This document shows, piece by piece, positions 4,322-60,409 of a stretch of DNA of 63,463 nt. The number at the start of each line of letters is the position of its first letter. Position 1 is the stretch's first letter. The translations under genes were made by a program, and so were the position numbers. The notes under the pieces are model-generated. The model ran no database searches. It saw only the letters and a program-made list of their open reading frames with translations, and was not told where the DNA came from. This DNA is from Candidatus Niyogibacteria bacterium. Its GTDB lineage: Bacteria; Patescibacteriota; Minisyncoccia; JACROR01. The DNA lies in NCBI GenBank assembly GCA_016186495.1, contig JACPLO010000004.1, positions 1 to 63,463 on the forward strand, read 5' to 3'.

Positions 4322-4927
4322 ATGCTGGAAAATTTTAAAAAAAAAATCCATCAAACGGGAATCTGGGTTGAAAGCTGGGCGGAAACGCCTCACGCGTTGT
4401 TCGCGCTTTTCATTTTGGCTTTTATTGAAAGCTCTTTTTTCCCCATTCCGCCCGATGTTCTGTTGATTGCTCTTTTGGTGGCGAATAACAAGGTTAAATG
4501 GTGGAAATACGCGCTGATTTGCAGCTTTGGTTCGGTTTTGGGCGGGCTTTTCGGTTACTTTATCGGCTACGGATTTTATGAAGCAATAGGCAAAAAAATA
4601 GTGGAATTTTATAATTTAGGAGGATTGATGGCGGGGATGGGCGTCAAATACGAACTTTATTCTTTTTGGATTGTTTTTACCGCCGCTTTTACGCCGATTC
4701 CTTACAAGATTTTTACCATTTCCGCCGGCTTTTTTAAAATTCCTCTTTTCGGTTTTATTATTGCCTCAATAATCGGCCGGGCTGCCCGTTTTTTTATTCT
4801 CGCCTATTTTTTAAAACTTTTCGGCTCTCAAGTAAAGCGCGTTATTTATAAATATTTCAATATTTTTTCCGTTATTTTTATTATTTTGTTGATCGGAGGA
4901 TTCGCGGTTTTAAAATTTATTTTTTGA
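4322..4927 (+). CDS. YqaA/DedA-like integral membrane protein
   Basis: ATG at 4322 lies just after the galT stop. FIESSFFPIPPDVLL motif and multiple TM helices. The 4211 start would overlap galT by 110 nt and was rejected. Confidence 0.7.
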   Translation: MLENFKKKIHQTGIWVESWAETPHALFALFILAFIESSFFPIPPDVLLIALLVANNKVKWWKYALICSFGSVLGGLFGYFIGYGFYEAIGKKIVEFYNLGGLMAGMGVKYELYSFWIVFTAAFTPIPYKIFTISAGFFKIPLFGFIIASIIGRAARFFILAYFLKLFGSQVKRVIYKYFNIFSVIFIILLIGGFAVLKFIF

Positions 4928-4942
4928 ATCATTATATATTTT

Positions 4943-5716
4943 ATGAAACGGATTATTGTCGCTAATTTAAAAATGAATCCGGAAACGCGAGGCGAGGCGG
5001 AGCGGCTTTTTCGCGAAATTAAAAGAACAGCTGGAAAATTGCGGGGCGTGGAAACGGTTTTTTGCCCGCCTTTTATTTATTTTTCTTCTTTAATCGTTAA
5101 AGCCGGATTAACAAATTTGAAATTAGGCGCGCAAGATGTTTTTTGGGAGCATTTGCCGGCCAAAGGAGGCGCTTTTACCGGAGAAATTTCTCCTTTAATG
5201 CTGAAAAAACTGGGAGTGAAATATGTAATTATCGGCCATTCCGAACGGCGCGAGCATTTGAAAGAAACGGACGAAATGGTTAATAAAAAAGTGAAAGCCG
5301 CTTTAAAAGCCGGACTTAAAGTGATTCTTTGCGTGGGCGAAAAAGAAAAAAAAGAAGATGTTTTGCCGGTGACGGTTAAAAAAGAATTAGAGAGCGCTCT
5401 GGTTGGCGTTTCAAAAAAAATGGCTGAAAATTTAATCATCGCTTATGAGCCGATCTGGGCGATCAGCGCCGGCCAAGCTGGCCAAGCCGATAAGCCGGAA
5501 GATGTTTTTGAAAAAACCATTTACATCCGGCGGATTTTATTCGATATTTTCGGCCAGAAGTTGGCTTACGGCGCGCCCATTCTTTACGGCGGTTCGGTTA
5601 ATGAAAAAAACGCGAAAGATTTTCTGGCGGTCCGGAATGTTTCCGGCCTTTTGGTCGGCGGCGCCAGTTTAAACGCGAAAAAATTCGGAGAAATTTTAAA
5701 ACAAGCCGCCATTTGA
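4943..5716 (+). CDS. tpiA: triosephosphate isomerase
   Basis: ANLKMN, IIGHSERR, AYEPIWAI and YGGSV motifs. Confidence 0.95.
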   Translation: MKRIIVANLKMNPETRGEAERLFREIKRTAGKLRGVETVFCPPFIYFSSLIVKAGLTNLKLGAQDVFWEHLPAKGGAFTGEISPLMLKKLGVKYVIIGHSERREHLKETDEMVNKKVKAALKAGLKVILCVGEKEKKEDVLPVTVKKELESALVGVSKKMAENLIIAYEPIWAISAGQAGQADKPEDVFEKTIYIRRILFDIFGQKLAYGAPILYGGSVNEKNAKDFLAVRNVSGLLVGGASLNAKKFGEILKQAAI

Positions 5717-32150: not shown

Positions 32151-32606
32151 ATGATAGTTATGATGGCCAAAATTATTCAAAATAAAAAAGCTTTTTTTGA
32201 TTACGAAATTCTGGAAAAATTTGAAGCGGGGCTGGGATTAAAAGGTTATGAAGTCAAAGCGTTGAAAAACGGCCGAGGCAGCATTATGGGAGCGAGAGTG
32301 CTGATTCGGGGAGGCGAGGCGTTTGTCGTGGGAATGGATATTGCGCCGTATCAACCGGGCAACGCGCCGGCTGGTTATGATTCCGGCCGAACCAGGCGTT
32401 TGCTTCTGCATAAGAAAGAAATAAGATATTTGGAAGGAAAGGCCAACGAACGAGGCTTGACTTTGGTGCCGATTAGTGTTTATACTAAAGGCAATCTTAT
32501 AAAGCTTGAATTTGGCGCCGGGCGCGGCAAGAAAAAAAGCGATAAGCGCGAAACGATTAAAAAGCGCGAAGCGCAGAGAAAAATAGAAAGAGCTTTGAAA
32601 TTTTGA
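32151..32606 (+). CDS. smpB: SsrA-binding protein SmpB
   Basis: NKKAFFDYEILEKFEAGLGLKGYEVKAL and LLLHKKEI motifs. Confidence 0.93.
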   Translation: MIVMMAKIIQNKKAFFDYEILEKFEAGLGLKGYEVKALKNGRGSIMGARVLIRGGEAFVVGMDIAPYQPGNAPAGYDSGRTRRLLLHKKEIRYLEGKANERGLTLVPISVYTKGNLIKLEFGAGRGKKKSDKRETIKKREAQRKIERALKF

Positions 32607-32615
32607 TAAAAAAAC

Positions 32616-32961
32616 GGGGATGATCGGCTTCGAAAGGAGTTTGAAAATTTTTGCTTCAGGCAGAGTATGGCGGGACATCTCTTAAAACTGATCCTGCCGA
32701 AAATAAAAGCAAATAATCAATTTGCCTACGCTTACGCTTAATTAAGCCGTAAGCCATCTGATTTGCCGACGCTCCATAGGCAAAATCGGGTGTCATTTTT
32801 TGGAGCTTGATTCTGCGATATCTCTAAACAGAACGACCAAAAGAGATAAAACTTTTCGGATTTTGTTTGGTTAAAACCGAAAAGCGCTTTAAAACCATTC
32901 TAAGCCCGTAAACGCAAAATTGGATAACTTCTTTACGCGGGTTCAATTCCCGCCATCTCCA
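32616..32961 (+). ncRNA. ssrA: tmRNA (SsrA), one-piece
   Basis: 5' GGGGAUGAUCGGCUUCGA and 3' GCGGGUUCAAUUCCCGCCAUCUCCA (T-arm plus acceptor with G3:U). Tag ORF is GCA AAT AAT CAA TTT GCC TAC GCT TAC GCT TAA at 32709..32741, giving ANNQFAYAYA*. CCA is not encoded. Confidence 0.92.
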
Positions 32962-33213: not shown

Positions 33214-34848
33214 TTATTTTTTATTTTTTCTTTCAAGAGCGGCTTTGATAAATCCCTTGAACAACGGATGAGGATTGAGCGGCCGCGACAGAAATTCCGG
33301 ATGGAATTGGACGCCGACAAAAAAAGGATGTTCATCTTTGGCTAATTCCACAATTTCAACCAGTTTCTTATCCGGCGAAACTCCGGCGATTACCAGCCCG
33401 AATTTTTCCAATGCCTCCCGGTATTGATTGTTAAATTCATATCTATGTCGGTGCCTTTCTTCAATCGTATCTTTTCCGTAACAACTTCTGCTGATAGATT
33501 TTTCATTAAGGCAGCAAGCGTATTTTCCCAAACGCATTGTTCCGCCTTTTTTATTCACCTGTTTTTGGCTTAACATCAGGTCAATGACCGGATATTTTGT
33601 TTCAGGATTGATTTCCGTCGTATGAGCTTCATTCAAGCCGGCGGCATTTCTGGCAAATTCTACGGCTGCTAATTGCATGCCAAAACATAATCCCAGATAA
33701 GGGATGGCGTTTTTTCGGCAGAAAGAGATGGCGTCAATAATTCCTTCCGTTCCTCTCTTGCCAAACCCTCCCGGCACGACAACGCCGGCGTATTTTAATA
33801 AATTACAGATATTAAAACCGGCCTCAAAGTTTTCAGAATTTATGAAATCAATAACCGGATTTCTTTTAAAATTCCAAGCGGCGTGTTTTAACGCTTCTAC
33901 CACGGAAATGTAAACATCCGCTCCTTTGTCAAAATACTTTCCGACAATCGCGATTTTAATCTGACTTTCAGGGTTTTGGACGCTTTTGACGGTTTCAACG
34001 AGATTGTTCCATTGATTAAGATCGGGTTTAAGATTGTTAAATCCTAATTTTTCTCCGATCAATTCAACGATCTTTCCTGTCTGAAAATTAAGAGGAATCT
34101 CATAAATATTCTTTACCGTCGGAGCGGGAATGACCGCTTTTTTCGGAACGCCGCAAAACTTTGAAATTTTATTGAGCGCGTTTTCCGGAATTTCTCTGTC
34201 TGTTCGCGCTAAAATAATATCCGGCCTAACGCCGTATTTCCTAAGAAGCGCGACTGAATGCTGGGTTGGTTTTGTTTTCAGTTCATCCGAACTTTCAAGG
34301 TAAATCAAGAGGCTTAAATGAACGGAAAGCGTAAAATCAGCGGGCAGTTCATCTCTTAATTGGCGAATCGCTTCCAGAAACGATTCTCCTTCAATATCGC
34401 CGACGGTTCCGCCGATTTCCACGATCACGACATCGGCGTTGCTTTTTTCCGCGGCAGCCAAAATTTTTATTTTAATCTCGTTGGTTATATGAGGAATTAT
34501 TTGGATTGTTTCTCCCAAAAAATCTCCCTTTCTTTCTTTTTTCGTTACTTCATTGTAAATCTGCCCGGACGAAACACTGCTTATTTTAGTAATCGGTTGA
34601 TTAAGCATTCTTTCGTAATGGCCTAAATCCAGGTCTGTTTCCGCTCCGTCATCGGAGACAAAAACTTCTCCGTGTTGAGCCGGATTCATTGTGCCGGGGT
34701 CAACATTAAGATAAGGATCCATTTTCATTACGAAGATTTTCAGACCGGAAGATTTTAACAGCATTCCTAAAGACGCTGATGCTATTCCTTTTCCAAGCGA
34801 AGAACAAACTCCGCCGGTGACAAAAATAAATTTGCTTTTTATCGTCAT
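33214..34848 (-). CDS. pyrG: CTP synthase
   Basis: FVTGGVCSSLGKG, a GATase block with GLCFGMQ and QFHPEF. Confidence 0.96.
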   Translation of the reverse strand: MTIKSKFIFVTGGVCSSLGKGIASASLGMLLKSSGLKIFVMKMDPYLNVDPGTMNPAQHGEVFVSDDGAETDLDLGHYERMLNQPITKISSVSSGQIYNEVTKKERKGDFLGETIQIIPHITNEIKIKILAAAEKSNADVVIVEIGGTVGDIEGESFLEAIRQLRDELPADFTLSVHLSLLIYLESSDELKTKPTQHSVALLRKYGVRPDIILARTDREIPENALNKISKFCGVPKKAVIPAPTVKNIYEIPLNFQTGKIVELIGEKLGFNNLKPDLNQWNNLVETVKSVQNPESQIKIAIVGKYFDKGADVYISVVEALKHAAWNFKRNPVIDFINSENFEAGFNICNLLKYAGVVVPGGFGKRGTEGIIDAISFCRKNAIPYLGLCFGMQLAAVEFARNAAGLNEAHTTEINPETKYPVIDLMLSQKQVNKKGGTMRLGKYACCLNEKSISRSCYGKDTIEERHRHRYEFNNQYREALEKFGLVIAGVSPDKKLVEIVELAKDEHPFFVGVQFHPEFLSRPLNPHPLFKGFIKAALERKNKK

Positions 34849-35023: not shown

Positions 35024-36565
35024 ATGAAAAATAACAGGCGATATCTTTTTCGGATGATTATTCCGGCCATGGCTGATAATATTTTTACGCGAATGATAAA
35101 AAAAACCATCGCGCTTGGTCCGGTGATGGTCGCCACGGCGGTTAGCAAATTACCGGATTGGGACGCGGAGATTATTCATGAAGCAGGATCCCGAAAGCAA
35201 ATTCCCCGAAACGCCGAAGGTGAAATAGACCATTTTGCGCTTCAAAAAGAACGGCCGGCGGACGCGATCGGCCTTTATTGCGGAATTTCTTCCACGATGC
35301 CGCGGGCCTGGCAAATAGCGAAATTTTATCAAAAACAAAGAGTTTTAACCGTCGCCGGCGGACTGCATTCTCATTATGAACCTTTGGAATCGTTGAAAAA
35401 CGGAATAGACGCGGTTATCCATGGCGACGGCGAAGAGACCATTAAGCAGATTCTGCTTTATTTCCAGAATTTTCCAAAAGAAAGAAATTTTTCTAAAATT
35501 CAAAATGTTTCTTGTTTTGAAGGCCGAGGTATTTTTTTAAAATCTGATTTTACGCCAAATCCTCAAAAATACAGCGCGTTTTTAGATAATCTGCCTGATC
35601 CTGATTTTAGTTTGATCAGGGATTGTAAAATTAAAACTTATCCAATCGGCCGCATTCGCGGCTGCGGAATGAGATGCGAATTTTGCAGCGTTAAAGAAAA
35701 GGCCCGCTGGGCCTCTCCGGAAAGACTTTTTAAAACTGTTAGCCGATTAGTGAAGGTTAGAAGAGCTAAAAAATTTTTTTTAATTGATGATCGGATGGAA
35801 GAGGATAAAGAAGGATCAATGCGTTTTTTTGAGCTAGTCGGCAAGAAATACGGACGCAAACTTGATTTTACCGTTCAAATCCGTTTGGAAGCGGCTAAAG
35901 ATGAAGAATTGCTGGCGCTTTTGCGAAAAGCGGGCGTAAGAAGAGTTTGTATTGGCTACGAATCGCCGATTGACGAAGAGCTGAAAAAAATGAAAAAGGG
36001 GTATCGCAGCCGCGAAATGATTGAATGGACAAAGATTTATCATCATTATGATTTTTTCGTCCACGCGATGTTTATTTTTGGCTATCCGGGAATTGAGAGT
36101 CCGCTTTCCGCCGAAAAACGGATGGAAAGATTTAAAGAATTTATTTTCCAAAGCAAAGTGGACAGCATTCAGGTCTTAAAGCCGATTCCTTTAGTAGGAT
36201 CTTTATTGAGGGAACGGCTTAAAAGCGCAAATCGGCTTTTGCCTTTAGCAATCGTCCCTTGGGAAAAATATGACGGTAATCACGTTTGTTTTCTGCCCGA
36301 AGATATGAGTTTAAAAGAAATTCAAGAATATCCGACAAAGATAATGAAATGGTTTTATAACAGTTGGAGTTTTTGGCGGATCGGATTGCGGATTTTGATG
36401 CCTTTTGGTCTTTTGCGCGGTTGGCATTCTTGGTATCACGGTTGGTGGAACGATATTATCCGTTTTGGCGGCAGCCGGCTTTACAAGAAATGGAAGCGCC
36501 GAAATAATGAAATTCTCTATGTTAAAAACATTGAAGATTTTTTAAGCAGAAAGCGTGTTTTATAG
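35024..36565 (+). CDS. B12-binding-domain radical SAM protein
   Basis: AAGGAGG SD. N-terminal Rossmann/B12-like region (VAGGLHSHY), the CX3CX2C cluster motif GCGMRCEFCSV and a TIM-barrel-like core. Confidence 0.8.
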   Translation: MKNNRRYLFRMIIPAMADNIFTRMIKKTIALGPVMVATAVSKLPDWDAEIIHEAGSRKQIPRNAEGEIDHFALQKERPADAIGLYCGISSTMPRAWQIAKFYQKQRVLTVAGGLHSHYEPLESLKNGIDAVIHGDGEETIKQILLYFQNFPKERNFSKIQNVSCFEGRGIFLKSDFTPNPQKYSAFLDNLPDPDFSLIRDCKIKTYPIGRIRGCGMRCEFCSVKEKARWASPERLFKTVSRLVKVRRAKKFFLIDDRMEEDKEGSMRFFELVGKKYGRKLDFTVQIRLEAAKDEELLALLRKAGVRRVCIGYESPIDEELKKMKKGYRSREMIEWTKIYHHYDFFVHAMFIFGYPGIESPLSAEKRMERFKEFIFQSKVDSIQVLKPIPLVGSLLRERLKSANRLLPLAIVPWEKYDGNHVCFLPEDMSLKEIQEYPTKIMKWFYNSWSFWRIGLRILMPFGLLRGWHSWYHGWWNDIIRFGGSRLYKKWKRRNNEILYVKNIEDFLSRKRVL

Positions 36566-36634: not shown

Positions 36635-38233
36635 ATGGTTAAAAAAATTTTGCGGCAAGAAATCAAAAAAGCGGTTAAAAAACTTTTTCAAAAAGAAATT
36701 GATTTTGATGTGTTCGCGGGCGATAAATTCGGCGATTACGCGAGCAACGCGGCGATGGTTTTAAAAACAGGAAATTCGGTTGAGGCGGCGAAGAAAATAA
36801 CGGAAGAATTAAAAAAATCAAAAAAATTCAGCCAATTTGTCGGAAAAATTGAAATCGCGAATCCGGGTTTTCTGAACTTTTGGCTTACGGATGAAATTTT
36901 ACGGGAAGAATTGAAAGAAATTTTAAAGAGAAAACAAAATTACGGCCGCTTAAGAATTGAAAACCGCAAGCTGAAAGCCGTCCAGGTAGAATTTATTTCC
37001 GCCAATCCGACCGGTCCTCTGACTTTGGCGAACGGCCGCGGCGGATTTATGGGAGATGTTTTGGCGAATATCCTGGAATTTCAGGGTTGGAAAATTGAGC
37101 GCGAATACTATGTCAACGACACCGGCAATCAGATTTTAACGCTTGGAAAATCCATTTTAGCCGCCAATAATTTGATCAAAGAAGATGAAAATTTTTATAA
37201 AGGCGGTTATGTCAAAGAATGGGCTAAAAAGCATAAAGCAATTTCCGGGAAATACCGGAATAATCCGTTAAAGCTCGGCCAGTCGGCGGCCGCGGATTTT
37301 TTAAAAGAAATAAAATCAGTCGTTAAAAAAGCAAAAATAAATTTTAACCGCTGGACTTCGGAGAATCGCCATATCCATAAAAAAAGTTTTATCGCTAAAG
37401 CTTTGAAAATTTTTAAAAAGAAAAAACTGGTTTATGAAAAAGACGGCGCTTTATGGCTGAAAACATCCGATTTTGGAGACGAAAAAGACAGAGTTTTGAT
37501 AACCCAAGACGGATTCCCGACTTATTTTCTGGCGGACGCCGGCCATTTTCTGGAAACAAAATCGCGCGGCTTTAATTCCAAAATTATGATTTTGGGGCCG
37601 GATCACTACGGCTATGTCCGGCGCGCCGCAGCCGCGGCAAAAATAATGGGAATTGAAAATTTTGAAGCAATCATCACCCAAGCGATGCGGCTGATGAGCA
37701 AAGGCCAAGAGATAAAAATGTCAAAAAGAAGCGGCGAGTTCATCACTTTCGGGGAATTGATAAAAGAAACCGGCGCGGATGCCGCCAGGTTTTTCTTTTT
37801 AATGCATTCGGCCCAAACCCATATGGATTTTGATTTGGATTTGGCTAAAGAGCGGTCAATGAAAAATCCGGTTTATTATGTCCAATACGCGGCTGTCAGA
37901 GCCCAAAGCATTTTACGAAAATCAAAAACTCAAAATCCAAAATCCAAAATAAATTTGAATTTATTAAACACGCCGCCAGATATGAATTTAATGCGGCAGT
38001 TGGCGCGATTTCCGGAAGCGGTCGGCGAAGCCGGCCAAAAACGCCAGCCCCAGATTTTGGCGCGATACGCTCTGGAATTTTCGCGGGAATTCCATAATTT
38101 TTACGAAAAAGAAAGAATTATCGGCGAGAAACCGGAAATTATGGCGGCGAGATCGGCTTTAATTCAAGCAACTTTGATAATTTTTAAAAATCTCTTCGCG
38201 CTTTTGGAAATTGATTTGCCGAAGAAGATGTAG
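36635..38233 (+). CDS. argS: arginine--tRNA ligase (HIGH motif degenerate)
   Basis: The FISANPTGPL block, GPDHYGY, KMSKRSGEFITF and the DALR anticodon-binding C-terminus (ILARYALEFSREFHNFYE) are present. The HIGH position reads TLAN. Confidence 0.88.
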   Translation: MVKKILRQEIKKAVKKLFQKEIDFDVFAGDKFGDYASNAAMVLKTGNSVEAAKKITEELKKSKKFSQFVGKIEIANPGFLNFWLTDEILREELKEILKRKQNYGRLRIENRKLKAVQVEFISANPTGPLTLANGRGGFMGDVLANILEFQGWKIEREYYVNDTGNQILTLGKSILAANNLIKEDENFYKGGYVKEWAKKHKAISGKYRNNPLKLGQSAAADFLKEIKSVVKKAKINFNRWTSENRHIHKKSFIAKALKIFKKKKLVYEKDGALWLKTSDFGDEKDRVLITQDGFPTYFLADAGHFLETKSRGFNSKIMILGPDHYGYVRRAAAAAKIMGIENFEAIITQAMRLMSKGQEIKMSKRSGEFITFGELIKETGADAARFFFLMHSAQTHMDFDLDLAKERSMKNPVYYVQYAAVRAQSILRKSKTQNPKSKINLNLLNTPPDMNLMRQLARFPEAVGEAGQKRQPQILARYALEFSREFHNFYEKERIIGEKPEIMAARSALIQATLIIFKNLFALLEIDLPKKM

Positions 38234-38265: not shown

Positions 38266-41200
38266 ATGCGGCAACCGGAAAATCAGAAAAATTTTAGTTT
38301 GCAAAATTTAAGCGGGAAAGTTTCAGAATCCGAAGAAAAAATCCTGAAATTCTGGCAGGAAAACAAAATTTTTGAGAAATCCGTTGAAAAGCCCGCCGGT
38401 GAAAAGCCGAAAGGCGATTTTATTTTTTATGACGGCCCGCCTTTTGCCACGGGCCTGCCTCATTACGGCCATATTCTGGCGAGCATTATCAAAGACGCGG
38501 TGCCGCGCTATAAAACCATGAACGGCTGGCGGGTGCCGCGGCGCTGGGGCTGGGATTGCCATGGTTTGCCGGTTGAAAATCTGATTGAAAAAGAACTTAA
38601 ATTGGAGACCAAAAAAGAGATTGAAAAATTCGGTTTGGAAAAATTCAATCAAGCGGCTAAAGAGAGCGTGCTTCGCTACGCCGATGAATGGAAAAAAATC
38701 ATTCCGCGCGTCGGCCGCTGGGTGGATATGGAAAATGATTACCGCACCATGGACGCTGATTACACGGAGTCGGTCTGGTGGGTTTTTAAGGCGCTTTACG
38801 ATAAAGGTTTGATTTATGAAGGATATAAACCGATGCATATTTGTCCGCGCTGCGAAACAACGCTGGCTAATTTTGAAGTGGCGCAGGGATATAAGGATGC
38901 GGCGGATATTTCGGTAACGGTGAAATTTAAGTTAAAAAATCCTGGCTTACTTTCTATTACAAAAAATGCGAATACAAATATCTATTTTTTAGCCTGGACG
39001 ACGACACCGTGGACTCTACCAGGTAATGTGGCTCTCGCTGTCGGTAACGATGTCAAATATCTTGTGTTGGTTAAAGATTCAGAAATAGTTATTGTTTCAG
39101 AACAGGCTTATAATAGAGGTGGTTTTGACGGTTTCTATATTCAAATACCAGTAGGAAAGACAGTATTAAAGGGTAGTGATCTTATTGGTTTGGAATATGA
39201 ACCACTTTTTGATTACTATTCAAAAGATAAAAATTTAGAGAATTATAAAAATGGCTGGAAAATTTACGGCGCGGATTTTGTTTCGGTTGAGGAAGGTACC
39301 GGCATTGTGCATATCGCGCCTGCCTTCGGCGAGGACGATATGGAATTGGGCAAAAAAGAAAATTTGCCGTTTATTCAACATGTAAGCATGGACGGTAAAT
39401 TTAAACCGGAAGTAAAAGATTTTGCCGGATTGTCCGTAAAGCCGAAAGATAATCCGCAAGCGGCTGATATTGAAATTATCAAGTGGCTTGCCAAAGAGAA
39501 TAAACTTTTCAGCAAACAAAAAATTACCCATTCTTATCCGCATTGCTGGCGGTGCGAAACGCCGCTTTTGAATTATGCCGCCTCTTCCTGGTTCGTGAAA
39601 GTAACGGCGATTAAAGAAGAACTTTTGAAAAATAACCGGAAAATCAACTGGATTCCGGAACATTTGCGCGAGGGGAGATTCGGCAAATGGCTGGAAGGGG
39701 CGCGGGATTGGGCGATTTCCCGAAGCAGATTTTGGGGAGCGCCGATTCCGGTCTGGCGTTGCCAATGCGGCGAAACTAAAGTAATCGGTTCGGCAGCGGA
39801 GCTGAAAAAAAATTCCGGTCAGTCCGGCAATAAATATTTCGTGATGCGGCACGGCGAAGCCGAACACAATGTTCTTAATCTGGCGAACAGCAAAATTGAA
39901 AATAATCATTTTGCTCTTACCGAAAAAGGAAGAAAAGAGGCGGCCCGCGCCGCGGAAAAGCTGAAAGAAAAAAATATCAGCCTGATTTTTTCTTCGGATT
40001 TTCTTCGGACTAAAGAAACAGCGGAAATTGCCGCAGCGGCGCTGGGCTTGGAAAAAGAAAAAATAATTTTTGACGAAAGGCTGCGCGAGGTCAAAGTGGG
40101 AATTTTTAACGGCCGCCCGGCCGCCGAATATCACGCTTATTTTTCTTCGCTAAAGGAAAAATTCACGAAAAACCCGCCGGAAGGCGAAAATTTAACGGAG
40201 TTGAAAAACCGCATAACCGGATTTTTATATGATTTAGACAAGAAATACCGCGGCAAAAATATTTTGATCGTCAGCCATGAGTATCCGATTTGGATGCTCT
40301 TTGCCGGAGCGGAGGGTGCGGATACATCGCGCGCGCTTGCCATGAAAGAGGATAAGGATGATTTTCTGCGCTATGCCGAAGTTCAAGGATTAGATTTTTA
40401 TTCTTTACCCCACAATCAAAACTACGAATTGGATTTTCACCGGCCATTTATTGACGAGATGGAATTTGAATGCGGCTGCGGCGGAAAAATGCGCCGGATT
40501 TCCGAAGTTTTTGACTGCTGGTTTGAATCCGGGTCAATGCCTTATGGCCAGAAGCATTATCCTTTTGAACATAAAGAAGAATTTAAGAAAAATTTTCCGG
40601 CGGAGTTCATTGCCGAGGGCGTGGATCAGACGCGCGGCTGGTTTTATAATCTTTTGGTCCTTTCCACCGCGCTTTTCGGAAAAGCGGCTTTTAAAAATGT
40701 GGTGGCGAACGGCATTATTCTGGCGGAAGACGGCCAAAAAATGTCCAAACGATTGAAAAACTATCCCGATCCGATGGAAGTCATTGAAAAATACGGCGCC
40801 GATTCTTTGCGTTTTTATCTTTTGTCTTCGCCGGCGGTGCGCGGCGAATCTCTTAATTTTTCTGAGAAAGGAGTGGACGAAATCCATAAAAAAGTAATTA
40901 TGCGGCTGTGGAACAGTTATCAATTTTATGAACTTTACGCCGGTAAAAATTTGAAATTTAATCTATCGGCCGGCGGAAAAAAATTAAAATTAAATAATAT
41001 CTTGGATAAATGGATTATCGCGCGGCTTGGCCAATTAATCGTCGAAGTTTCCGAAGCAATGGATAAATATGAGCTTGATCGGGCAACGCGGCCGATCGGA
41101 GATTTTGTTGATGATTTATCAACTTGGTATATTCGCCGTTCAAGAGACAGATTTAAAGCGGAAAGAAAAGATAAAAATAACGCTATTGCAACGACAAAAT

Positions 41201-41838
41201 TTGTTTTGTCGGAATTTTCAAAAATTATCGCGCCGTTCGCGCCGTTTCTGGCGGAAATGATTTATCAAAATCTCGGCAATAAAAACTCGGTGCATCTTGA
41301 AAGTTTCCCAAAAATTGATAAAAAAATGACTGATAAAAAATTACTTGAAATAATGGCGGAAACGCGGAAAATTTGTTCATTTGGATTGGAAGCGCGGGCA
41401 AAAGCGGGGATTAAGGTCAGGCAGCCATTACAAAAGTTAAAAGTTAAAAGTTTAAAGTTAAAAGTTAAGAAAGAATTTTTAGATTTAATCAAAGACGAAA
41501 TAAATGTTAAGAACATTGTTTTTGACGCAAAAATTAAAAATGAAATAGAGTTGGATATGCTTATCACTTTGGCGCTTAAAGAAGAGGGGATGATTCGGGA
41601 ATTGACGCGTAAAATTCAAGAGACGCGGAAAAAGGCGGGACTCGCGCCGCGGGATAAAATTGAAATGATTATTTTTGCCGGCGCGGGCGTCAAAAAAATT
41701 ATTAAAAAACACCAAAAGACTTTTCAAAAAAATATCTCCGCGCGTTCCCTGGAATTTGGCGCGATCAAGAAAAATTATTTCAAAGAAGAGCTGGCGTTGG
41801 ACAACGAAAAAATTATTTTAGGCCTTAAGGAATTATAA
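38266..41838 (+). CDS. ileS: isoleucine--tRNA ligase with inserted histidine-phosphatase-like domain
   Basis: PPFATGLPHYGHIL (HIGH), the CP1 editing blocks WTTTPWTLPGN, KMSKRLKN and an anticodon-binding domain. About 200 extra aa (39829..40431) carry RHG / SSDFLRTKETA / VSHE motifs. Confidence 0.92.
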   Translation: MRQPENQKNFSLQNLSGKVSESEEKILKFWQENKIFEKSVEKPAGEKPKGDFIFYDGPPFATGLPHYGHILASIIKDAVPRYKTMNGWRVPRRWGWDCHGLPVENLIEKELKLETKKEIEKFGLEKFNQAAKESVLRYADEWKKIIPRVGRWVDMENDYRTMDADYTESVWWVFKALYDKGLIYEGYKPMHICPRCETTLANFEVAQGYKDAADISVTVKFKLKNPGLLSITKNANTNIYFLAWTTTPWTLPGNVALAVGNDVKYLVLVKDSEIVIVSEQAYNRGGFDGFYIQIPVGKTVLKGSDLIGLEYEPLFDYYSKDKNLENYKNGWKIYGADFVSVEEGTGIVHIAPAFGEDDMELGKKENLPFIQHVSMDGKFKPEVKDFAGLSVKPKDNPQAADIEIIKWLAKENKLFSKQKITHSYPHCWRCETPLLNYAASSWFVKVTAIKEELLKNNRKINWIPEHLREGRFGKWLEGARDWAISRSRFWGAPIPVWRCQCGETKVIGSAAELKKNSGQSGNKYFVMRHGEAEHNVLNLANSKIENNHFALTEKGRKEAARAAEKLKEKNISLIFSSDFLRTKETAEIAAAALGLEKEKIIFDERLREVKVGIFNGRPAAEYHAYFSSLKEKFTKNPPEGENLTELKNRITGFLYDLDKKYRGKNILIVSHEYPIWMLFAGAEGADTSRALAMKEDKDDFLRYAEVQGLDFYSLPHNQNYELDFHRPFIDEMEFECGCGGKMRRISEVFDCWFESGSMPYGQKHYPFEHKEEFKKNFPAEFIAEGVDQTRGWFYNLLVLSTALFGKAAFKNVVANGIILAEDGQKMSKRLKNYPDPMEVIEKYGADSLRFYLLSSPAVRGESLNFSEKGVDEIHKKVIMRLWNSYQFYELYAGKNLKFNLSAGGKKLKLNNILDKWIIARLGQLIVEVSEAMDKYELDRATRPIGDFVDDLSTWYIRRSRDRFKAERKDKNNAIATTKFVLSEFSKIIAPFAPFLAEMIYQNLGNKNSVHLESFPKIDKKMTDKKLLEIMAETRKICSFGLEARAKAGIKVRQPLQKLKVKSLKLKVKKEFLDLIKDEINVKNIVFDAKIKNEIELDMLITLALKEEGMIRELTRKIQETRKKAGLAPRDKIEMIIFAGAGVKKIIKKHQKTFQKNISARSLEFGAIKKNYFKEELALDNEKIILGLKEL

Positions 41839-41959: not shown

Positions 41960-42529
41960 ATGGCCAGCATTTACAAGACCGAAGGCGTAATTTTAGGGCA
42001 AAGCGAAATCGGAGAAGCGGATAAACTTTTGATTGTTTACAGCCGAGATTTCGGCAAAATAAAAATTTTTGCCAAAAGCGTCCGTCTTTTGCGGTCAAAA
42101 CTCAAAGGGCATTTGAATACCGGCGCTTATCTGCGGCTGATGTTCGTTCAAGGCGCGGATAAATTACGCTTAATTGACGCCCAAGAGTTTGAATTAAACG
42201 ATTATCCTGTTTTTAGCCGTTCTCTGTTTTTTCCCACTTTTTCTTTTTTAAACAGAATAATTCAAGGGAGTGAAAAAGATGAAGCGGTTTGGTTTTTATT
42301 TTTGCGATTTCTGGAAAGAGGGCCTATTTTTGAAAATGTCGCGGCGGCCCGAAAAATTTTCGCGGCGCGCCTTTTGCACCGGCTCGGCTATGTGGATGAA
42401 AATCATTACCCGGAATTAAGAGAAATCATAAAAAACGAGAAAAGGTGGAATTTTAACATTTTTGAAAAACAAGCGTCCGTTAAAATGGACACCCTGATTG
42501 AAACGGGGATTAAAGCCAGCCATCTTTAA
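41960..42529 (+). CDS. recO: DNA repair protein RecO (short form)
   Basis: YKTEGVILGQSEIGEADKLLIVYSRDFGKIKIFAKSVR is an OB-fold N-terminus typical of RecO. Confidence 0.75.
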   Translation: MASIYKTEGVILGQSEIGEADKLLIVYSRDFGKIKIFAKSVRLLRSKLKGHLNTGAYLRLMFVQGADKLRLIDAQEFELNDYPVFSRSLFFPTFSFLNRIIQGSEKDEAVWFLFLRFLERGPIFENVAAARKIFAARLLHRLGYVDENHYPELREIIKNEKRWNFNIFEKQASVKMDTLIETGIKASHL

Positions 42530-60125: not shown

Positions 60126-60197
60126 GGGCATTTAGCTCAGTGGTAGAGCGTTCCGTTCACATCGGAAAGGTCATAGGTCCAATTCCTATAATGCCCA
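60126..60197 (+). tRNA. tRNA-Val (anticodon CAC), CCA not encoded
   Basis: The cloverleaf reads GGGCATT-TA-GCTC-AGTGGTA-GAGC-G-TTCCG-TTCACAT-CGGAA-AGGTC-ATAGG-TCCAATT-CCTAT-AATGCCC-A. The T-loop reads TCCAATT (C at position 55). Confidence 0.88.
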
Positions 60198-60409
60198 CTA
60201 AATAGCCCAAATTTAACAGGATAAGCACGCGAAAAGCCACAGGGTTGAGTTCTGTATGACCCAATTCCAATTTTAAGTTTTCCACAGGTGCTTAAAAAAG
60301 CTTATTATTTATGGTATTATATAAATAAGGTCGAAATTAAAAAAAGTTTTTGTGCACAACAACTTTAGTTTATTGATTATCAGTTAATTTCTTTAAAAGA
60401 ATTTAAAAT

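Follow-up and report, generated by a model that had tools for sequence, protein, structure and literature searches.

How does an aminoacyl-tRNA synthetase come to carry a complete phosphatase inside its own reading frame, and what could that phosphatase do there? The question is raised by the ileS gene in a stretch of DNA of Candidatus Niyogibacteria bacterium (assembly GCA_016186495.1, contig JACPLO010000004.1). The window is the whole stretch analysed, 63,463 nucleotides (nt) long. The gene encodes an isoleucyl-tRNA synthetase (IleRS) of 1190 amino acids (aa), in which a histidine-phosphatase domain is nested within the module called connective peptide 3 (CP3). A preliminary description of the locus had pointed out the insert. 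In sister lineages the phosphatase is literally the neighbour gene of ileS, a fact beyond that description, and the origin of the insert is explained by this adjacency of a free homologue. The nested domain is probably, though not securely, a captured operon partner with a function tied to the synthetase.

The synthetase and its nested domain

The features of the gene are listed below. Conservation refers to an alignment of 120 homologues.

38266..41838, plus strand: ileS, a type-2 (eukaryote-like) IleRS with a nested domain, 1190 aa (open reading frame (ORF) listing, TIGR00392, AlphaFold2 (AF2), Foldseek)
38461..38472, plus strand: HIGH motif, here HYGH, aa 66-69 (motif search; at least 90% conserved)
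38998..39015, plus strand: editing-site motif TTTPWT of connective peptide 1 (CP1), aa 245-250 (motif search)
39739..39816, plus strand: first half of CP3, aa 492-517, with the first CxC of the zinc knuckle, C499 and C501 (alignment to Candida and yeast IleRS; PMC7191050, PMC7955072)
39817..40413, plus strand: nested histidine-phosphatase domain, aa 518-716 (Pfam PF00300, AF2, Foldseek)
39838-40338, plus strand: His_Phos_1 Pfam envelope, aa 525-691 (PF00300)
39847..39852, plus strand: R528-H529 of the RHG loop, with H529 the predicted phospho-acceptor (R528 in 119/120 homologues, H529 in 120/120)
40006..40008, plus strand: R581, second Arg of the phosphate pocket (120/120)
40087..40089, plus strand: E608, predicted general acid/base (proton donor) (120/120)
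40276..40278, plus strand: H671, second catalytic His (119/120)
40414..40518, plus strand: second half of CP3, aa 717-751, with the second CxC (C736 and C738), running into the Rossmann strand CWFESG (alignment)
40738..40752, plus strand: KMSKR loop, aa 825-829 (motif search; K825 and K828 invariant)
41005..41436, plus strand: anticodon-binding domain, aa 914-1057 (Pfam Anticodon_1, E=8.7e-32)

The identity of the synthetase was examined by profile search and structure prediction. In the NCBIfam scan, ORF 38266-41838 scored 904.7 bits for TIGR00392 (ileS; cut-off 621.4), the match falling into two separate stretches. The Pfam match to tRNA-synt_1 was also broken into two stretches, and DUF5915 was detected at aa 1094-1186. 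The closest special NCBIfam models were MupA/MupB, which are mupirocin-resistant type-2 enzymes. Residues T245, T246, T247, W249 and T250 of the CP1 motif are invariant. The full-length AF2 model reached pLDDT 90.7 and pTM 0.86, with the insert blocks at 90-97 and low confidence in loop 893-911. By Foldseek, this model superposed on 8C8V (TMt 0.81), on 1ILE (TMt 0.89) and also on yeast IleRS, with TMt values in the range 0.81-0.89. No second ileS was found within the 63-kb window. These data indicate that the protein is a functional-looking type-2 IleRS, with its predicted synthetic, editing and anticodon-binding parts intact.

The insertion point was located by alignment to the chain of 8C8U (P. 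megaterium IleRS2). Residues 18-517 of the query aligned to chain residues 9-478, and residues 717-1108 to chain residues 481-869. Since the chain alignment resumes at 481 after 478, about 199 aa (518-716) stand in place of a 2-residue linker. In insert-less orthologues a linker of about 8 aa is found at the same point and the alignment runs seamlessly across the junction; the insert-less IleRS of the loci with a free phosphatase share 53-56% identity with the window enzyme outside the insert. No base-composition step was seen across either junction. The linkers flanking the phosphatase are short, conserved and confidently modelled by AF2.

The published limits of CP3 are 473-534 and 459-526 in Candida and yeast IleRS (PMC7191050, PMC7955072), and alignment to these two enzymes places the insertion in the middle of CP3. 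The zinc-knuckle cysteines C499, C501, C736 and C738 are at least 90% conserved, and H725 and D730 are invariant. In T. thermophilus IleRS, CP3 is likewise a zinc knuckle. A catalogue of class I insertion modules describes CP3 as a cysteine-rich zinc finger of 25-77 aa with no function assigned (PMC10810186). Judged from these alignments, the insertion spares the core strands of the Rossmann-fold domain and sits in a module that is peripheral and varies in length.

The inserted domain belongs to the histidine-phosphatase superfamily. PF00300 was found in the full protein at E=6e-34 (117.9 bits, gathering cut-off 21.7), between the two tRNA-synt_1 halves, and on the excised domain sequence at E=2.1e-35 (122.6 bits). 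Its catalytic residues are aligned and conserved, with R528, H529, G530, R581, E608 and H671 at 99-100% among the 120 homologues. The motif search gave RHGE at aa 528-531, LRTKETA at 580-586 and SHEYP at 670-674, and N535 is kept in 118/120 homologues. The R-H-N-R-E-H hexad is complete in 115 of 119 nested IleRS copies, in 118/118 free proteins and in all 12 copies of multi-copy IleRS. The pattern in IleRS is what an active enzyme would show, the whole hexad including E608 being near-invariant there and also present in the free proteins.

The domain modelled alone by AF2 reached pLDDT 95.8. A PGAM-type alpha/beta fold was predicted, with Foldseek TM values of 0.74-0.80 and E values of 1e-13 to 1e-14 against PspA, Rv2419c and PhoE. 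The best Foldseek matches were H. thermophilus PspA, mycobacterial Rv2419c-type hydrolases, PhoE, a riboflavin-pathway histidine-family phosphatase, TIGAR and CobC. Similarly, the insert profile matched PspA (1.9e-20) and PhoE (5e-18) over the full length, with the closest relatives overall at 1e-16 to 1e-20. Against the solved cofactor-dependent mutases, it matched in the N-terminal half only, at E of about 1e-9. The top NCBIfam score was that of dPGM_arch, at 87.6 bits with a cut-off of 225. None of the NCBIfam equivalog cut-offs was reached by the insert (PspA 68.7 of 350 bits, CobC 78.1 of 162.9, SixA 36.1 of 74.5). No GNAT domain was found in the window IleRS by Pfam, and NF040702 scored 327.8 bits against a cut-off of 1999. 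The insert is thus a branch-1 phosphatase that is PhoE/PspA/CobC-like by sequence and predicted structure, and not a cofactor-dependent phosphoglycerate mutase (dPGM). It resembles these families and is a member of none of them.

Most of what the preliminary description had read from the letters holds. In this genome the phosphatase is an in-frame nested domain of a single 1190-aa ORF and not a neighbouring gene, and the superfamily assignment is correct. The HYGH, KMSKR, RHG-loop, second-Arg and second-His motifs all lie where they had been placed, and the insert of about 200 aa in place of a short linker is 199 aa against 2-8 residues. Three points need adjustment. The limits first given, 39829-40431, differ from those found here (39817-40413) by 4-6 codons at each end. 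The insert had been placed inside the catalytic core; it is within the IleRS Rossmann-fold domain, at the peripheral CP3 module and not in the core proper. The term PGAM-like is right for the fold and wrong for the affinity in sequence and structure, which is of the PhoE/PspA/CobC type, every dPGM cut-off having failed.

Distribution of the nested and free forms

Conservation of the architecture was assessed among homologues. The PF00300 insert was present, in-frame, in 120/120 of the best homologue clusters at 55-75% identity, and its length was 194-216 aa across all of them. These clusters come from ENA, NCBI, JGI and Logan assemblies, with source names that include Wolfebacteria, Niyogibacteria, Campbellbacteria, Pacebacteria and Parcubacteria. 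Mean column conservation was 0.65 for the insert, 0.65 for the anticodon domain and 0.70 for the N-terminal catalytic part. A scan of GTDB with one genome per species gave at least 177 relatives, and loci were inspected for the best 80 of these matches. The N-flank, insert and C-flank were colinear in one frame in 78 of the 80. Nearly all of the 80 loci are titled as Patescibacteria lineages or plain 'bacterium', and one (L007) bears a Spirochaetia label. The architecture is common: it is of Paceibacteria type and occurs in hundreds of metagenome-assembled genomes (MAGs) of Patescibacteria.

Two side observations concern these loci. The Spirochaetia label of L007 and many TPA_asm titles reading 'uncultured Candidatus Saccharibacteria' clash with the Paceibacteria-type gene and synteny, and mis-binning or generic labelling is likely. 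In a Tagabacteria MAG (L024 3641-5010), the ileS N-flank, insert and C-flank lie in three frames; either the gene is decaying or a frameshift arose in sequencing or assembly.

The genes on either side of ileS in the window were used for comparison with other loci.

36635..38233, plus strand: argS, directly upstream of ileS with a gap of 32 nt (Pfam Arg_tRNA_synt_N, tRNA-synt_1d, DALR_1)
41960..42529, plus strand: recO-like gene downstream of ileS, a conserved synteny marker (Pfam RecO_N; order shared by L081, L083, L086 and L092)

The insert alone was searched exhaustively against 1.84 billion representative proteins, and 70 clusters reached E<=1e-30. Of the best 150 matches, 93 were IleRS-embedded, many of them fragments, and 57 had no IleRS flank at all. 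The latter are mostly about 180-215 aa long with a Met start; some are probably fragments of embedded copies. The free-protein family in Patescibacteria comprises 317 clusters at E<=1e-15 to one member (P0163), named 'histidine phosphatase family protein' or 'PhoE'. The free gene encodes 186-200 aa. In 7 of the 8 loci examined it lies directly upstream of an insert-less ileS (818-957 aa), and in 6 of those 7 argS is directly upstream of the free gene, with gaps of a few bases. The order in the sister loci is polX, smpB, (infC, rpmI, rplT), argS, X, ileS, recO, where X is the free phosphatase. A DUF11/CLIPPER protein, a class II synthetase, an M16 peptidase and an AI-2E transporter follow downstream of recO in the same synteny. 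The window keeps this order, but its insert-bearing ileS follows argS after the 32 nt with no X between them.

The free and nested forms exclude each other at the level of the locus. A free copy was absent from 38/38 insert-bearing argS-ileS loci examined, and ileS was insert-less at 7/7 loci with a free copy linked to ileS. Within the 63-kb window no second phosphatase copy was found. The free protein P0163 aligned to insert residues 5-193 at 41% identity. A C-terminal 'return strap' specific to the nested form was considered and rejected, as P0163 already ends where the nested form ends; the nested form adds only about 6 linker residues (SLPHNQ). Neighbour-joining (NJ) trees were built for the domains and for IleRS with the insert stripped out; they suggest that the free-type and nested-type enzymes are interspersed. 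These crude trees do not separate repeated insertion from duplication followed by reciprocal loss.

At one locus with a free copy (L091), the free phosphatase gene and ileS are separated by a gene for a CYTH protein (triphosphate-tunnel metalloenzyme) at 4570-5160, and the AA_kinase-argS pair is closely preceded by a reverse-transcriptase (RVT_1) gene.

Further captures of the phosphatase were found at other positions and in other proteins. An arginyl-tRNA synthetase (ArgRS) with a C-terminal phosphatase fusion (P0212, L081/L082 8001-10070) is present in two independent assemblies with window-like synteny, and a Sua5/YrdC (TsaC)-phosphatase fusion (P0247, L088 977-2140) is present on a single 3.7-kb contig. 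In some IleRS the CP3 is intact and two phosphatase copies occupy sites B and C. Site B follows 'WFESGSMPYAS', and site C is in the loop that opens the anticodon-binding domain, corresponding to loop 893-911 of the window protein; one such IleRS is encoded on a 1.06-Mb contig. At a further site, A', the copy lies within the second hairpin of the zinc knuckle.

Similarly, the phosphatase was found in valyl-tRNA synthetase (ValRS). One ValRS (P0135) contains four copies. Among ValRS-like clusters (P0395-P0512, the closest 119 to P0135), 69/119 carry 1-3 copies, and in 61 of these 69 carriers all copies are confined to the CP3 equivalent, the gap between WGHxIP and DTWFSS. The named carriers are Gracilibacteria and Peregrinibacteria, some with contigs of more than 1 Mb. 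By automatic alignment, the hexad was complete in 42 of 70 ValRS copies; the other 28 miss at least one residue, usually the Glu, with R-H-R-H mostly kept. Taken together, these sequences indicate repeated capture of one and the same phosphatase family by class Ia synthetases.

Other domains were also seen in these enzymes. An IleRS of 1325 aa (P0090) has a GNAT domain at aa 285-415, inside the CP1 editing region, plus a CP3 phosphatase. Patescibacteria ValRS (P0418, P0453, P0427 and P0421) carry extra DUF559/PF04480 (endonuclease-like), HU (PF00216) and ABC_tran_CTD domains; because of these, the synthetases seem to take up foreign domains readily. By eye, a TsaB/YeaZ-like protein of 188 aa (GGISGPGGFSSLR motif) seems to be encoded at L094 9590-10156, downstream of a Gracilibacteria-type valS that has no insert.

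The remaining features of the window are as follows.

32151-32606 and 32616-32961: smpB, then after 9 nt the gene for tmRNA (tag peptide ANNQFAYAYA)
33214-34848, antisense: pyrG, between smpB/tmRNA and argS
35024-36565: B12-binding radical-SAM gene, between smpB/tmRNA and argS
39235-40134, minus strand: ORF of 299 aa opposite the insert inside ileS
38323-38838, minus strand: ORF of 171 aa opposite the ileS N-terminus

Both antisense ORFs within ileS are most likely chance ORFs. Where the window has the radical-SAM gene and pyrG, related genomes have infC-rpmI-rplT. A single tRNA gene was found in the 63 kb, Val-CAC at 60126-60198.

Readings of the capture

We think it fairly probable that this IleRS is a bifunctional enzyme, in which an operon partner of ileS has been captured as a rigidly held phosphomonoesterase with a function tied to class Ia synthetases. 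The operon neighbour would have been duplicated into CP3, and the lineages would then have retained either the free or the nested copy by reciprocal loss. The nested domain is predicted to be an autonomous phosphomonoesterase that works via a phospho-His529 intermediate, and it would be held at a fixed position at the side of the catalytic domain. Its role may be linked to class Ia synthetase function and not to glycolysis.

IleRS, ValRS, ArgRS and TsaC all perform ATP-dependent adenylate formation with release of pyrophosphate (PPi), and three of the four also bind the tRNA 3' end and release AMP. A nucleotide by-product or a phosphorylated tRNA end is therefore a candidate substrate, given this adenylate and tRNA chemistry common to the partners. 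The likeliest substrate class would be a nucleotide-type or tRNA-end phosphate that arises or is encountered at the synthetase. Candidates within it are a nucleoside monophosphate such as AMP, PPi and a 3'-phosphorylated tRNA end, and the sequence evidence favours none of them.

Several observations weigh against a bifunctional IleRS of this kind. From the topology of the Rossmann fold, CP3 and site B would join N-terminal strand ends, away from the catalytic cleft, which weakens the case for direct channelling. We know of no branch-1 histidine phosphatase that acts on PPi or tRNA ends. At one of the eight loci examined, the free homologue (P0171) adjoins a ROK sugar kinase and not ileS, so part of the family may be metabolic. 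The NJ trees are crude, with very short internal branches. The model of a free neighbour becoming nested was not replicated for ValRS, as no phosphatase was found within 6 kb of the insert-less valS at the one locus concerned (L094). By automatic alignment, 22/60 ValRS proteins have no copy with a full hexad, mostly through loss of the Glu, and ligand binding fits better there.

It is possible, though on balance unlikely, that the phosphatase is a hitch-hiking housekeeping enzyme of broad or metabolic specificity without a role in aminoacylation. It would then have been captured through adjacency, economy of co-expression and the tolerance of CP3 in streamlined genomes. The free gene does lie in a mixed housekeeping operon (smpB, infC, rpmI, rplT, argS, X, ileS, recO), one homologue is linked to the ROK kinase, and the nearest solved relatives of the domain are small-molecule phosphatases. 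CP3 is variable and has no assigned function, as catalogued in PMC10810186. The ArgRS fusion is the outcome expected from loss of a stop codon, and the unrelated GNAT, DUF559 and HU domains are also found in these synthetases. What such hitch-hiking does not easily explain is the number of captures, with two terminal fusions in addition to at least five different sites across two paralogous synthetases, and the occurrence of tandem multi-copy forms. The short, conserved and confidently modelled linkers suggest a fixed geometry. In addition, no N-terminal phosphatase-IleRS fusion was seen among the best 150 representatives, despite the free gene immediately upstream of ileS. Because such a fusion would be one stop loss away, this argues for positional selection rather than read-through fusion.

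The bifunctional reading can also be put in a stronger form, which we offer tentatively and hold to be doubtful. In Patescibacteria the phosphatase would serve class Ia synthetases as a dedicated accessory activity. It would have been recruited convergently to the CP3 of IleRS and of ValRS, with ArgRS and TsaC as further partners, and it would act on a phosphate that these enzymes produce or meet. It might, for example, clear tRNA ends that are damaged or toxin-modified of a 3'-phosphate or pyrophosphate shortly before charging, or alternatively hydrolyse PPi or AMP at source. An aminoacyl-tRNA synthetase would then have a third catalytic function, in addition to synthesis and editing.

A non-catalytic module is improbable. 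In such a module the pocket would bind a phosphorylated ligand or an RNA phosphate, such as a tRNA terminal phosphate, or the domain would serve in oligomerisation, as in dimeric or tetrameric PGAM-fold proteins. The 28 of 70 ValRS copies without a full hexad, usually lacking the Glu proton donor, and the presence of two to four copies per polypeptide are in its favour. However, the IleRS hexad, with E608, is invariant or nearly so, and that of the free proteins is always complete.

An embedded glycolytic dPGM is very improbable and was rejected. The best NCBIfam score and the PGAM-like fold point to it, but the score of 87.6 bits is far under the cut-off, as is that of pgm_1 (32.1 against 81.7), and only half of the domain aligned to the mutases against full-length alignment to PspA and PhoE (1e-18 to 1e-20). 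The domain is also 199 aa long, against about 230-250 for dPGMs, and E608 is followed by VKVG as read from the sequence, not by the R-x-Y-G of dPGM.

Finally, an assembly chimera or a frameshift artefact fusing two genes, to which the locus split over three frames (L024) might point, was rejected as having practically no likelihood: the same in-frame junctions recur in more than 120 independent clusters and in 78/80 genome loci, and the flanks, which are two halves of a single CP3 zinc knuckle, line up without a break on orthologues that have no insert.

Comparison with known systems

The preliminary description had called the architecture outside the textbooks. No description of it was found in open-access full text (PMC, bioRxiv; subscription journals lay outside the search), and no NCBIfam model dedicated to a phosphatase-bearing IleRS was among the best 25 families listed. 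The architecture is not unique, being widespread in the Patescibacteria survey and long present in the databases. Such proteins have been public for years, for example in the GW2011 Wolfebacteria genomes, as 'class I tRNA ligase family protein' or 'isoleucine-tRNA ligase'. The former, which is the only name that NCBI gives to many of these essential enzymes, is explained by the nested domain.

At this locus the synthetase thus has a second, nested enzyme that is apparently active, and the host module, CP3, has no known function. One phosphatase family appears in three evolutionary states, as an operon neighbour, as a terminal fusion and nested at multiple sites, in two paralogous synthetases and across a large bacterial radiation. 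From this Rosetta-stone pattern, a PhoE-like phosphatase and the class Ia synthetases are predicted to be functional partners. A real link would mean that ultra-small, host-dependent bacteria have an unrecognised step in the charging of tRNA or in the maintenance of its ends. If the link is not real, the locus would still be a clear case of adjacency and permissive loops driving domain capture in streamlined genomes.

The synthetase itself is close to known type-2 enzymes. P. megaterium IleRS2 (8C8U/8C8V) and T. thermophilus IleRS (1ILE) share with it the domain order, the HIGH and KMSKS motifs, CP1, the zinc-bearing CP3 and the C-terminal DUF5915-type domain, and phmmer compared the window IleRS with P. 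megaterium IleRS2 at E=2.6e-229. The difference is at one point: the type-2 structures have a 2-residue linker where the window protein has its 199-aa phosphatase.

The CP1 editing domain is, to our knowledge, the sole nested catalytic module of a synthetase understood so far. It is a precedent for a second catalytic site gained by insertion. CP1 is universal and ancient and acts on aminoacyl-tRNA. Unlike CP1, the phosphatase insert occurs in certain lineages only and derives from a phosphatase superfamily, and nothing known connects it with the reaction of the synthetase. The mode of evolution is the same as for CP1 and the class Ia modules CP2, ZF and CP3, each a module nested in the Rossmann-fold module (PMC10810186).

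The phosphatase is likewise close to known enzymes. PhoE (G. stearothermophilus 1H2E/1EBB), PspA (H. thermophilus 4IJ5, a phosphoserine phosphatase), CobC (alpha-ribazole phosphatase) and Rv2419c are branch-1 proteins of about 200 aa with the same catalytic residues as the insert. They share 22-27% identity with it and are free-standing, unlike the nested domain of the window.

Two further systems combine similar parts. The family NF040702 (ileS_w_GNAT, 'isoleucine--tRNA ligase, N-acetyltransferase domain-containing') is also an IleRS with an extra internal enzymatic domain. There the domain is a GNAT, with its site in the CP1 region as in P0090, whereas the window protein has a phosphatase in CP3. 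The bifunctional RNase H/CobC-type acid phosphatase (NF005567) is the second-best NCBIfam match of the insert, at 84.1 bits under a cut-off of 326, and Rv2228c of M. tuberculosis is an example of it. In this protein a PhoE/CobC-like phosphatase is likewise joined to a nucleic-acid enzyme; that fusion to RNase HI is end-to-end, while the phosphatase of the window IleRS is nested.

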